Below are positions 3,370 through 62,427 of a stretch of DNA of 64,000 nt, one piece after another. The DNA lies in NCBI GenBank assembly GCA_964016885.1, contig OZ024764.1, forward strand, positions 1,922,001 through 1,986,000, written 5' to 3'. The notes below the pieces were generated by a model. The model did not search any database, was not told the DNA's origin, and was given only the letters and a program-made list of their open reading frames with translations. Position 1 is the first letter of the stretch, and every line of letters starts with the position of its first letter. A program made the position numbers and the translations under genes. Origin of the DNA: Eledone cirrhosa. Its lineage: Eukaryota.

Positions 3370-3822
3370 ATGCATAGAGTTACGGCCCTTGCCATTCTGA
3401 GTTCAAATCCCGCCGCGGTTAACTTTGCCTTTCATCCTTACGGGGTCGATAAAATAAAGTACCAGTAATGCACTGGGGTATTTGCTGGCCTTGTGCCTAA
3501 AGTAGAAACAAGTATTACGGGGTCGATAAAATAAAGTACCAGTAATGCACTGGGGTATTTGCTGGCCTTGTGCCTAAAGTAGAAACAAGTATTACGGGGT
3601 CGATAAAATAAAGTACCAGTAATGCACTGGGGTATTTGCTGGCCTTGTGCCAAAAAGTAGAAACAAGTATTACGGGGTCGATAAAATAAAGTACCAGTAA
3701 TGCACTGGGTAATTGCTGGCCTTGTGCCAAAAAGTAGAAACAAGTATTACGGGGTCGATAAAATAAAGTACCAGTAATGCACTGGGTAATTTGCTGGCCT
3801 TGTGCCAGATGTAGAAACAATT
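3370..3822 (+). mobile_element. SINE family B (5'-truncated) with five 77-bp tandem units of its 3' part
   Basis: B-box-like gagttcaaatccc; unit ttacggggtcgataaaataaagtaccag...gtagaaacaagta starting at 3438, 3515 and onward. Confidence 0.8.
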
Positions 3823-3932
3823 ATTTCTGAAGACGGCGTTTTCTTACTATGATATTTTGTAATATATTTTACATAGATCAATAATAGAATGGACATACGG
3901 GGAACTACCCCGCAGAAACGATCGTAAAATAA
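3821..3932 (+). ncRNA. Type I hammerhead ribozyme with long stem II insertion
   Basis: TTATTT-CTGAAGA-(~80 nt)-GAAA-CGATCG-TA-AAATAA; palindromic stem III; GUA site; base of stem II pairs poorly. Confidence 0.55.
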
Positions 3933-4994
3933 TGAGTTTTACTATGAATTAACCGTTTTGTGTTTAATTTCATTGTTTTACTATTTGTATTTTTGACTCT
4001 GTATCCAATGAATTATATCGTTGAAAGTTTTGTATTTTAAACTTTGCTTCACGACATCTTTTACATACGGATTACATTGAGTTCTTCATACGGTTTAGAC
4101 CCTACCATTGATTCGTAGATTTATCTGTGTATATATATATATATATATATATACACCCCTCTCCACTCTCACGAGCGTGAAACTAATAAACCTTTGTTTG
4201 TACTGCCTCTCTGTTTTGTTCCCGTTCCAGTTTTCATTATATCAGTAATGCACTGGGTAATTGCTGGCCTTGTGCCTAAAGTAGAAACAATTATATATAT
4301 ATATATATATAGTAGAATAATCGAGTATCGAAAAATCGGCGCACGAGTTCACGATAAACAAAATTCGATATGAGCGGCAGAGGGCTCAATAATTTAGATA
4401 AATCAGAGCTATAACTATCGTTAAAATACCGTCACACATACAACCGAAAAATTATATATATATATATATATATATATATGTAGATAAATCTACCAAGAGT
4501 TTACGGTAGTGTCCAATTTTGTTTAATATTTTATATATATATATATATTGTTATACTTGGGGAGGGTCATATTTGTGTAATATTGCCAGAATTAACAACA
4601 GAACACACATTTGTTTCGACACACGATTTCATATCAAAAACCTCGCAAAACTAATATATATATATATATATATATATATATATATATATATATATATATA
4701 TATATATATATAATTCCATCTCTTTGTCTCTCTATCTATCTACCTCTATCTTTCCCCATCCATATATCTGTCTGTCTATCTATCTATCCATCTCTTCGTA
4801 CTCCTGGAGATGAGGGTTGTACATTTTTTCGGGGGTATGTGTTACCCATATGAACTGTCTCCCCCTATTGGGGAAAATCGATTAACTTTTAAATTGCATT
4901 TGTGATAATATTTTACACGTTTTTATTGTATGTAAACTTCCCCTTTTGTATTTGTCCCCTTCTTTTGTGCCCCTGTGGCTAATAAAGACACATA

Positions 4995-6052
4995 TCTATC
5001 TCTATCTATCTATCTCTCTCTCTATCTATCTATCTCTCTCTCTCTCTATCTATCTCTCTATCTCTCCCTCTATCTCTCCCTCTCTCTCTCTCTATCTATC
5101 TATCTACCTACATATCTATCTATCTCTCTCTATCTATCTATCTATCTCTCTATCTCTATCTATCTATCTCTCTATCTCTAACTATCTCTCTCTATCTCTA
5201 TCTATCTATCTATCTATCTATCTCTATCTCTCTCTATCTCTCTATCTCTCTCTATCTATCTATCTCTCTCTATCTCTATCTCTCTATCTATCTCTCTCTA
5301 TCTCCATCTGTCTCTCTCACACACGTGTTTCTGTTTACAAACTAACATTTCTATTTAATATTCGCCTATCCCCCCTCTCTCTCTCTCTTCATATACCTCC
5401 CACCACTACCTCTCCCCCCTCTCTCTCTCTTCACATACTCCCACCACTAGCTCTCCCCTCTCTCTCTCTCTCTCTTCACATACCTCCCACCACTACCTCT
5501 CCCCCTCTCTATCTCTCTTCACATACCTACCACCACTACCTCTCCCCCTCTCTCTCTCTCTTCACATACCTCCCACCACTACCTCTCCCCCTCTCTATCT
5601 CTCTTCACATACCTACCACCACTACCTCTCCCCCTCTCTCTCTCTCTTCACATACCTACCACCACTACCTCTCCCCCTCTCTCTCTCTCTCTTCACATAC
5701 CTACCACCACTACCTCCCCCCCCCCTCTCTCTCTCTATATATATATACCTACCACCACTACTTCCCCCCTCTCTCTATATATATACCTACCACCACTACC
5801 TCTCCTCCCCTTCTCTCTCTATATATACACCTACCACCACTACCTCTCCCCCTCTCTCCCTCTCTCCCTCTATATATACACCTACCACCACTACCTCTCC
5901 CCCTCTCTCCCTCTATATATACACCTACCACCACTACCTCTCCCCCTCTCTCTCTCTATATATATACCTACCACCACTACCTCCTCCTCTCTCTATATAT
6001 ATATATACCTACCACCACTACCTCTCCCCCTCTCTCTCTCTCTCTCTCTCTC
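4995..6052. repeat. (TCTA/TC)n microsatellite followed by a ~40-bp pyrimidine-rich minisatellite
   Basis: ctctctcttcacatacctaccaccactacctctccccc units. Confidence 0.85.
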
Positions 6053-7197
6053 CATCATGTCTGTACCCCCCACCCTTCCTTGATGTCTGATTCATTCATT
6101 TCAGAGTAGAAAGGAATATTTCTTGGGTGGAGTCAGACACCGGGTGGAGTGGAGTGGAGGGTAGGGTGGTGGTGGTGGAGTGGGGGAGATAGTGGTGGAA
6201 ATGGTATTGGTTATGCTTTTGTTGTTGATGGAAATGGTGATGGTGGTGTTAAAGATGGTAGTGAGTGGTGTTGGTGGTGGTGGTGTTAGTGGTGGTGGTG
6301 GTGTGTACTGGTGGTGGTATTGTTGATGGTGGTGGTGTGTTGGTGGTATTGTTGTTAGAAGTGGTGGTGGTGTTGATGGTGGTGGTGGTGGTGTTAAAGA
6401 TGGTAGTGAGTGGTATTGTTGGTGGTGGTGGTGTTGATGGTGGTGGTGGTGGTGGTGGTATTGTTGTTAGTGGTGGTGGTGGTGGTGTGTAGCTAGGGGA
6501 CGGTGTCCCCTATAGTGATGTGTGTAATGACTACACAAAAGGCGGTAGTGGCGGTACGGGGGAGGTGATGGGGGTACAGAGGGTGGAGGGGGGTACGGGG
6601 TTGGTGGTACAGAGGGCGGGGGGGGGCACGGGTTTGGTGGGGGTGATGGTGGTACAGAGGGGGGGGGCATACAGAGGGTGGAGGTGGTGGTGGTATAAAG
6701 ATGGAGAGACGGAGAGGTCTTCTGCGTGTGATGACTAGACAAACGTATGGGGGGAGGGCGGTGTTAGTAGGTACTCTGACCCCCCCCCCCCCTTCTGGTG
6801 ATGGTGGGGCAGGGGTACAGGATAGGGGGAGGAGGGTGTAATGACGCATGACATCCTGTGTTCAAGAGTTATATCACATATAACACACACATATATATAT
6901 ATATATATACACACACATAGATACATACACACACACATATATATATACATACACACACATATATATATACATACACACACACACACATAGATACATACAC
7001 ACACACATATATACACACACATATATATACACGTACTCACACATATATACATCAATACATGCTTACATATATATATACATACACATACACATATATATAT
7101 ACATACACACACGTATATATATACACATATGCATTAATACATACATTTGTACATATATATATACATATGCACATTATACAATTATATTATATATACA

Positions 7198-60657: not shown

Positions 60658-61020
60658 CAGTGCATCTTCGCTTATCCAGATATCGCTTTTCCGAAATTCA
60701 ATTTACCCGATGGCTATTTCTTTACTACTATTTATTCATTTTTATAAAAGTACCTACTTTTTATGGTTTGACTCAATTCAGTTTTACCAAGTGTTTAGTT
60801 ATTCTTATGTTTGTTTAATTAATTTTCTTATAAATTCTAGCTGTTCTTTTGTTATTCTAATAAACTTTCTTTACTTAGCATTTGTCTTTTATCTTGACTA
60901 AAAGAAGCCAAAATATTAGAAACCAGGAGATTTATGTAACAATGGGATCTTAGAATTGACTTATCCAGATATTTTCCTAACTGTTTGGTTTTGACTGTGC
61001 AGATAAGCGAAGATTCACTG
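60658..61020. mobile_element. Tigger/pogo-like MITE
   Basis: TIR CAGTGCATCTTCGCTTATC / GATAAGCGAAGATTCACTG with TA flanks. Confidence 0.8.
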
Positions 61021-61070
61021 TATATATATATATATATATATATATATATATATATATATATATATATATA

Positions 61071-61204
61071 GGAACAAGCCGTCGAAACGGCTTGAGCTCA
61101 GCCGTCGGGGTCTTACTTGTTCCTATTACCCACTCTACTACCCTAAGTATTGAGTACTTTGGTGCGTTATGATCCACTTGGTTCCTTACCACATTTCCTT
61201 CGTT
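61071..61204 (+). mobile_element. (TA)n-inserted short element carrying the 3' half of a hammerhead and the bulged hairpin; other copies at 1260-1372, 2697-2820, 3178-3342, 52445-52580
   Basis: GAAA-CGGCT-TGAGCTC-AGCCG-TC (stem III plus GUC), then ACTC-TACT..AGTA-TT-GAGT. Confidence 0.65.
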
Positions 61205-62427
61205 ATATATATATATATATATATAATATATAAGATCAAAAGATGGTTAAATGAGTTCCATGTATTTTATTAAATCATCTTTTGATCTTATATATTATGT
61301 ATACTCCAGTCCTACAAACTGTAGAGTGCTTCTTATCCGATATCTGCATTGCTTTATTGTACTACAATAAAACTCACCTCCTACACACATATATATATAT
61401 ATATATATTTATATATTCACATACTTACATATACTGTCACACACATACATACACACACATATATACAGTCACACATACATAATACATACACACACACACA
61501 CATATACAGTCACACATACATAATACATACACACATATACATACATACACACACACACATATATATATATATATATATATATATATATATTCACATACTT
61601 ACATATACTGTCACACACATACACACACACACACACACACATATACATATACAGTCACACATACATAATACATACACACATATACATACATACACACATA
61701 TATATATATATATATATATTTATATATATTTATATATTCACATACTTACATATACTGTCACACACATACATACACACACATATATACAGTCACACATACA
61801 TAATACATACACACATATACATAGATACACACACACATATATATATATATATCAAAACACGGACGAAACCATGGTAGAGGAATTTAAATGTATTCTATTT
61901 TCTCCTAGTTTATTTTACACCTAATTCTGCTTAGTTGACTGTATCTGGGCAATTACGCTGTCGCAATATTCGATAAATATTCCACTACGGCTGACGCGAA
62001 GGGCTGGTTTCGTTTATTTGTCGGAGATTCCTTCATAGAAGCCTCATTCGTATAGCCTGGTCTATTCGATTTCTTATATAGTTAATTATGCTAATTGGGA
62101 GAGGAAATGGTATGTATTTTATCTTGTGATTCTATAGACATGTTTTATGATATATATATATATATATATATACACACACATACATACATACATGCTTACA
62201 TACATGCTTATATGCTTACATACATACATACATGCATGTATACACACACACCCACACACACACACATACATATATACACACACACACATACATACATGCT
62301 TACATACATGCTTATATGCTTACATACATATATACATGCATGTATACACACACACCCACACATACATATATACACACACACACATACATACATGCTTACA
62401 TACATGCTTATATGCTTACATACATAC

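Follow-up and report, generated by a model that had tools for sequence, protein, structure and literature searches.

Hammerhead-bearing islands between (TA)n runs in the genome of Eledone cirrhosa, read as probable ends of Penelope-like elements

What are the short islands, bordered by (TA)n and carrying type I hammerhead motifs, that recur in the genome of Eledone cirrhosa, and by which route did they get there? The question is raised by a stretch of 64,000 nucleotides (assembly GCA_964016885.1, contig OZ024764.1, positions 1,922,001 to 1,986,000 of the forward strand), which as a whole is called the window in what follows, and in which a preliminary description, made from the sequence alone, had pointed out fourteen such motifs. 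We consider it highly probable that the islands are the hammerhead-bearing ends, that is, pieces of the pseudo-long terminal repeat (pLTR), of at least seven families of Penelope-like elements (PLEs), six of them of the Hydra type, inserted in (TA)n, likely by their own protein with reverse transcriptase (RT) and GIY-YIG endonuclease.

Consider first the motifs themselves. All fourteen are present where they had been placed. A wide descriptor (CUGANGA, stem II of at least 2 bp, GAAA, stem III of at least 1 bp, UH, and stem I of at least 4 bp) returns 13 motifs from the window, namely 12 of the 14 noted earlier together with one at 8942-8984(-). In these twelve, CUGANGA, GAAA, and UH follow one another in the type I order and stems I-III are all present, and for them the claim of full type I hammerheads stands; it does not stand for the other two. 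At 3821-3932 the 5' arm of stem II is partly deleted relative to other copies of the same family (G), and at 54328-54386 stem I has a mismatch, CAAT instead of the TTTTCATT that occurs in 15 of 26 motifs of family F. A narrower type I descriptor returns 11 motifs from the window, to be compared with a mean of 0.01 (maximum 1) in 100 local dinucleotide shuffles and with no match at all for each of 12 decoy cores, so that the comparison with shuffled sequence, one of the checks named in the preliminary description, comes out in its favor. In a random sample of 60 10-kb stretches (600 kb), drawn from 27 large contigs by lower-bound length, there are 61 intact motifs in 31 stretches, or 102 per Mb (bootstrap 67-140), and 10 decoy cores have 0-3 matches each. 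The motif density of the window is about twice this sample average.

The stems also covary. Among 18 distinct motifs (the A/A2/B group and relatives), picked from 73 collected, stems I-III pair in 93% of the cells, and both sides have changed in 12 of 17 pairs; this level was reached by none of 500 shuffles, a result that is not a probability, since the motifs of the set are related in sequence, and slid controls pair in 33-58%. The thought that chance alone could have put these motifs into repetitive, AT-rich DNA is invited by their short, AT-rich stems and by an Rfam scan of the window with no hammerhead family among the matches listed (150 of 456); it is refuted by the shuffles, by the decoy cores in the sample and by covariation in all three stems, and its probability is negligible. 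Judged from their sequence, then, the motifs are real and have the shape of hammerhead ribozymes. Stem III is mostly a palindrome of 4-6 nt without a loop, a form described as working in dimers (PMC4209133), and the monomer folds are mostly not in the active shape, a point against our reading.

Self-comparison sorts the 14 motifs into 7 families, three of them related, and not into the many unrelated elements proposed earlier: A (motifs at 11278, 42488, 42610, and 54509), A2 (41682 and 56913), B (9792, 31889, and 32007), C (40893 and 40954), D (22998), F (54328), and G (3821). When the sequence upstream is walked, a parent that codes for RT and GIY-YIG is met elsewhere in the genome for each of the seven. 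In family A, for instance, the parents have natural open reading frames (ORFs) of 689-699 amino acids, the protein has RLRW, DKT, FIQLDI, YRDD, CNCX5C, and a GIY-YIG-like end, and the ORF is followed by an untranslated region (UTR) of 1.1-1.3 kb and then by the hammerhead in sense. One locus of this family (L040) has the arrangement pLTR-ORF-pLTR, and another (L038) starts at the fixed 5' site of family A, to be described below, right after (AT)12 and continues through the pLTR into the ORF. There are 75,451 first-look candidates for the family A protein in the genome, 105 of them scored. Related ORFs lie upstream at 11 of 15 loci of A2, 10 of 20 of B, 4 of 6 long loci of C, 3 of 4 loci of F, 3 of 5 of G, and 5 of 15 of a further family, K; relatives of the element protein that carry organism names come from Argonauta hians and Elysia marginata. 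The 3' UTRs of two parents of C (L252 and L253) and two of F (L247 and L248) contain 1-3 kb of degenerate TA/TG simple sequence, which resembles the tracts at 49500-53900 and 57500-58900 of the window.

The probable clade is read from the proteins and from the architecture. The CxCX5C linker is found in A, B, C, F, and K, is read from DNA in A2 and G, and is absent in D and E. DKT occurs in A, C, and F, RWK in F, and RW[C/R] in A (no N-terminus is seen in A2, B, and G), and an endonuclease without CCHH, with CxxC and CxH around conserved E and N, occurs in B, C, and F and, read from DNA, in A. The pLTRs of A, A2, B, C, F, and G each have a hammerhead of canonical form, which that of K lacks in the sequence examined, and the PLE features of a partial pLTR tandem (L040 and L038), an inverted 5' copy, and an optional tail are all seen. 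By these characters six of the seven families, all but D, are assigned to the Hydra-type PLEs, and the genome has at least seven such families when K is included. Family D, which may resemble Nematis, is assigned to another PLE clade: at 4 of 4 long loci its parent has RT and GIY-YIG without CxCX5C, and Pfam finds GIY-YIG above cut-off. Family E has an RT and GIY-YIG parent with a CX4CxxC linker (CSRPRCHTC) and two internal cysteines. The Neptune clade, to which it may belong, is marked by a CX2-5CxxC linker and a CCHH endonuclease, and the linker type occurs in Naiad and Nematis as well. Less favorable to the assignment is that Pfam has no match for the family A protein and that a PDB search returns a retron RT as a weak match (E 0.0037); in the Hydra-type families, RT and endonuclease are therefore identified by their motifs. 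The Pfam GIY-YIG match is weak for families C and E.

Extension of the consensuses in the 5' direction thus leads to RT and GIY-YIG ORFs and not to the terminal inverted repeats of DNA transposons. A DNA transposon or miniature inverted-repeat transposable element (MITE) was rejected, as its terminal inverted repeats should be of equal length and its parent should code for a transposase, whereas here the arms differ in length and stand head to head and each parent is an RT element, and family C as a stand-alone palindromic MITE is ruled out by its upstream extension and ORF. Because each family of the listed motifs has its own coding parent, the islands are to be seen as pLTR pieces and not as retrozymes. 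The earlier proposal that they are hammerhead-bearing ends of TA-targeting PLEs is hereby upheld, and its companion, that they are non-autonomous and mobilised in trans, is not supported for the 14 motifs, six of whose families form one clade. Rather improbable, in our judgment, is also the more general alternative of non-autonomous, retrozyme-like elements or elements resembling short interspersed nuclear elements (SINEs), with an RNA of their own and PLE enzymes borrowed in trans. It probably holds for family H and for an array of 310-nt units, both described next, short copies do far outnumber long ones, and a transcribed solo pLTR copied in trans looks the same as copying of an mRNA 5' end; however, the short pieces of the seven families match coding parents colinearly, with about 85-98% identity, and are not tandem, and they lack the pile-up of ends at the cleavage site that ribozyme-cut circles would predict.

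Family H, with the motif at 8942-8984 that was absent from the preliminary description, is the only place in the window where a retrozyme reading holds. Its copies are tandem arrays, with a period of 520-522 nt in one of them (L212) and a longest ATG frame of 85 amino acids; the unit contains (TA)n, and the arrays have two end sites, separated by about 65 nt. These properties fit a non-LTR retrozyme with a PLE-type footprint, likely moved in trans by the same kind of enzyme as the PLE families. A second retrozyme lies outside the window (L331 6303-7543, G000:C4:337207651-337217650), where a 310-nt tandem unit with five hammerheads stands between (TA)n runs. The octamer ATGCAAAT, which may act as a promoter element, occurs in the H unit (8830-9170(-)) and, reversed, in the 3' UTR of family A, about 45 nt upstream of its 5' site.

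The islands of the window and their relatives are the following.

3821..4127 (+), piece of family G (Hydra-type); stem II of the family is about 100 nt, its 5' arm partly lost here
8654..9381 (-), family H, non-coding retrozyme in tandem, one full unit between two partial ones, hammerhead 8942-8984
9745..10104 (-), family B (Hydra-type): sense tail 10054-10104, joined to an inverted arm (9745-10048) that carries hammerhead 9790-9860
11122-11223 (-), inverted tail piece of family A, beside the following piece
11226..11390 (+), pLTR piece of family A (Hydra-type PLE), hammerhead 11278-11338, short 3' end
22896..23077 (-), 3' end of family D (PLE of another clade), hammerhead 22998-23040
31844..32203, head-to-head pair of family B, hammerheads 31889-31959(-) and 32007-32077(+)
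35006..35237 (+), 3' end of family E (PLE, linker CX4CxxC); core, stem II, and GAAACGUC present, stem I partner absent
40884..41088, head-to-head pair of family C (young, Hydra-type), hammerheads 40893-40943(-) and 40954-41006(+)
41615..41894 (+), pLTR piece of family A2 (Hydra-type), hammerhead 41682-41748, long end
42271-42385, decayed pair of family D
42436..42611 (-), inverted arm of family A, hammerhead 42487-42551, short 3' end
42609..42807 (+), sense arm of family A, hammerhead 42609-42671, tailed long 3' end followed by (AT)n
54234..54477 (-), 3' end of family F (Hydra-type), hammerhead 54328-54386 with the stem I mismatch
54493..54624 (+), piece of family A, hammerhead 54509-54572; on the minus strand, a half copy in fold-back
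55067..55247 (-), piece of family M, core CAGAAGA; other pieces at 30375-30587 and 56035-56123
55449-55669 (-), second copy of family E
56696..57031, head-to-head pair of family A2: minus arm 56696-56863 without core, plus arm 56868-57031 with hammerhead 56913-56984
61077..61203 (+), pLTR piece of family K (Hydra-type): GAAA, stem III, and UC, CUGANGA absent; other copies at 52444-52570(-), 2696-2793(-), 1257-1372, and 3178-3343
61218..61384, pair of family B, core absent, cut short near the cleavage site

For 15 of 17 cores there is a run of (TA)5 or more at most 302 nt away on both sides, against a window background of 5.1 such runs per kb. No remnant of a Hydra-type ORF is found in the window. 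The genome searches gave 1,100-3,000 first-look candidates per family, which are not copy numbers; in family C the best 40 matches are 100% identical over 105 nt.

How were the islands made? The answer must be sought in their ends, for which statistics were collected in five families (A, A2, B, C, and G) with positions counted from the cleavage site. With tail-only queries, the 3' end adjoins (TA)n at 29 of 30 loci of C and 28 of 30 of B, in agreement with the earlier claim of a TA target and as stronger evidence for it than the runs near the cores. Each measured family has two fixed 3' ends, about 60-140 nt apart. Sense arms end at +143 in A, +152 in A2, +134 in B, +89 in C, and +201 in G. 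Inverted arms, which lie adjacent at 13 of 29 loci of A, 10 of 17 of A2, 19 of 29 of B, 16 of 25 of C, and 8 of 19 of G, end at +60 in A (8 of 13), +59 in A2 (6 of 10), +53 in B (17 of 19), +22/+28 in C (13 of 16), and +60/+64 in G (6 of 8). The short-ended copy is usually inverted and stands head to head with a long-ended one. The word T[TA]GAGTNC is common to the long ends of all five families and absent in D and E. The two 3' ends match the PLE tail, the stretch between two internal RT start sites, as the available part of a study of a PLE in vitro describes it; there, both target strands are extended from two internal starts and cleavage is not required (PMC11167929).

The 5' ends are also fixed. 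Within a 9-nt window, 16 of 42 junctions fall at -129 to -121 in A, 14 of 27 pile up in A2, 14 of 48 at -130 to -122 in B, 25 of 41 at -46 to -38 in C, and 10 of 27 in G, when a uniform null gives about 4-6 (P<=0.0002); in family K the pile-up is 63 of 90. The individual sites are A -128, B -124, C -45, and, counted from the start of its conserved block, K -15. In the family C pair at 40884..41088, the fixed 5' site is the start of both arms. By eye, a CA with pyrimidines on its 5' side marks each 5' edge, and C, K, and some A2 copies have TATA-like words at a distance of 25-32 nt upstream of the site. For a rotifer pLTR, an initiator-like TCACT together with a TATA box has been described (PMC3846280, available part). 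Ends made by the ribozyme were tried as a candidate and rejected, since there is no pile-up at the cleavage site comparable to those upstream. In family B, four junctions in sense fall between 0 and +5, close to the start of its query.

The mechanism that we propose is target-primed reverse transcription, likely by the RT and GIY-YIG protein of each family. The endonuclease would cut both strands of (TA)n, and each free end would prime cDNA synthesis at one of the two internal starts on an uncleaved sense RNA. Both cDNAs would often reach the same point and would then be joined head to head. The ribozyme would serve in the processing or release of transcripts, likely slowly, as a dimer or with help from protein, and would probably not be needed for copying. 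The common end point may be the 5' end of a short RNA from a pLTR promoter, and on this, as on whether the fixed 5' site is an RNA 5' end at all, we see the chances as about evenly divided. Somewhat weaker, and to be taken as tentative, is the fuller proposal that most islands are complete cDNAs of a short pLTR RNA from a TATA/initiator promoter, primed from both ends of cut (TA)n and left behind as strong-stop-like head-to-head pairs.

Several observations weigh against the short-RNA proposal. No TATA-like word is present at -30 in B or G, and the one in A is poor. The 5' count of A2 is biased, as its query began near the site, and in C and G, where the site falls on the 5' strand of stem I, microhomology could add to the pile-ups. 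A direct test, unfavorable to the simple form of the proposal, is provided by 20 copies of A and 20 of K that include the start of the ORF, with the pLTR in 19 of each: only 2 of 19 in A and 2 of 19 in K start at the fixed site, and 7 and 11 copies, respectively, extend further upstream. From this follows that long copies often come from longer read-through templates, or that the site is a hot spot of fold-back.

The latter possibility is a rival in its own right: the islands would be ordinary 5'-truncated products of a long RNA, their 5' ends would be hot spots of fold-back or template switching, and the pairs would arise by self-priming at stems or palindromes, possibly on an antisense template. 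We find it unlikely, although less so than the other rivals. It agrees with the ORF-bearing copies, which lack a pile-up at the site, and with the position of the site on stem I in C and G; some C copies do switch through stem I homology (L135), and head-to-head pLTRs have been explained in print by self-priming on an antisense template, in the available part of PMC3846280. Yet both arms end at the same site, some copies without an inverted arm start at it directly after (TA)n, and the site lies away from stem I in A, A2, B, and K. Moreover, the arms differ in their fixed 3' ends, which is not expected from simple fold-back of one cDNA.

Is the ribozyme needed for the spread of these elements? 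Several copies that had been called decayed, at 55175, 61084, and 35145/55495, turn out to represent states of whole families. In family M (55175) the core is CAGAAGA in 32 of 38 copies and CUGA in none. In family K (61084) there is no CUGANGA in the upstream sequence examined of its Hydra-type parent loci. In family E (35145/55495) the stem I partner is absent in the copies listed. K, with 25 matches and no core, and M, with 24 and an altered core, are among the most frequent pieces of the random sample, an abundance that fits a ribozyme dispensable for copying. A repeat at 42140-42252, also present at several other loci, has GAAA, a CACGTG palindrome, and UC, and no CUGANGA within 60 nt upstream; it is another core-less family. 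Family J (58002-58274), an island of low copy number, has GAAA and a stem II like that of a hammerhead, with a deviant core that is the same in a second locus (L316). Family I, finally, with blocks at 534-626(-) and 997-1089(-), has the order cleavage site, GAAA, CUGAUGA, which is the type-SGC order (PMC10085705, available part). In 14 copies of it, stems I and III together with an extra helix pair in 94% of the cells, 11 of 17 pairs have changed on both sides, and stem II has no Watson-Crick form; there are 2,864 first-look candidates in the genome.

The window around the islands is AT-rich and rich in simple repeats. An exon for BTB/POZ at 26587-26958(+) (Pfam PF00651, E 3e-21) likely belongs to a kelch-like gene, in the introns of which the islands may lie. 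At 22690-22761(+) there is a tRNA-like sequence above the Rfam cut-off (44 bits) beside a small palindromic repeat, possibly the head of a SINE. Long tandem arrays occupy 14386-18540, 18600-22400, and 39400-40770, one of them with a unit of about 114 nt that carries a short (TA)n. Broken RT remnants of the type found in long interspersed nuclear elements (LINEs) lie at 33856-34850(-), with an RVT_1 match at 34494-34850, at 28697-29099(-), and at 9913-11070; the family B island 9745-10104 is situated at one of these remnants. Some of the TA/TG-rich sequence of the genome may come from Hydra-type elements whose 3' UTRs contain simple sequence.

When the sample is extrapolated to the 3.0-Gb assembly, the estimate is about 300,000 motifs (200,000-420,000), which exceeds the published counts of 126,247 hammerheads in axolotl (PMC7229834, available part) and about 9,000 in Xenopus tropicalis. 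In the open-access literature we found no genome-wide hammerhead count in octopus and no fixed 5' ends of solo pLTRs. The kind of element is already known; what is new is the density, the two 3' ends per family, the fixed 5' ends, and the abundance of families with an altered or missing core. Thanks to young families, long open frames, exact ends, and natural core variants, a few RNAs and a single protein are enough to test the role of the ribozyme and the origin of the head-to-head pairs. If the core is indeed altered (M), missing (K), or non-circularly permuted (I) in families that have spread, the role of the PLE hammerhead becomes directly testable, and if the short-RNA proposal is true, the genome records the transcription start, both RT starts, and the target for a whole PLE clade.

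How do these elements compare with known systems? The comparisons with papers cited here refer to the parts of their text that are available. Family H resembles the metazoan non-LTR retrozymes in its non-coding tandem units with one type I hammerhead each and low GC (Cervera and de la Pena 2020, PMC7229834; Li et al. 2026, 10.64898/2026.07.22.740005), but its unit is about 460-520 nt instead of 170-400 nt and includes (TA)n, and the ends of its arrays lie at two fixed sites, as in PLEs. The 14 listed motifs, unlike retrozymes, lie outside tandem units and have coding parents. With the hammerheads of the survey that counted about 9,000 in Xenopus tropicalis they share the type I order, the palindromic stem III with little or no loop, the many sequence families per genome, and the occurrence mostly as single motifs or as opposite-strand pairs 100-700 bp apart; they differ in their density of about 100 per Mb, in the 8-bp stem I and the interrupted long stem II of A, A2, and B, and in the stem II of about 100 nt in G. 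The closest relatives are found in the Hydra clade, which has been published with hammerheads, called universal in their canonical form, with (TA)n targets, and with a member from Octopus bimaculoides, Hydra-1_Obim (PMC8557442, Craig et al. 2021). Common to that clade and the present families are a single ORF with RT and C-terminal GIY-YIG, the RWK-like, DKT, CxCX5C, CxxC, and CxH motifs, a sense hammerhead near the 3' end, the (TA)n target, the inverted 5' copy, and the optional tail. In contrast, the hammerheads here differ from the one listed for Hydra-1_Obim, the 3' UTRs measure 0.9-2.9 kb, those of C and F being full of TA/TG simple sequence, the tails are about 60-140 nt and not 30-40, family K has no core, and the copy number is very high. 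PAc Poseidon, studied in vitro (Frangieh et al. 2024, PMC11167929), belongs to a different clade, and a fixed 5' end of short genomic copies is not described in the available part of that study; nevertheless, there as here, two fixed 3' ends go together with AT-rich targets and with no sign of copies that start at the cleavage site.

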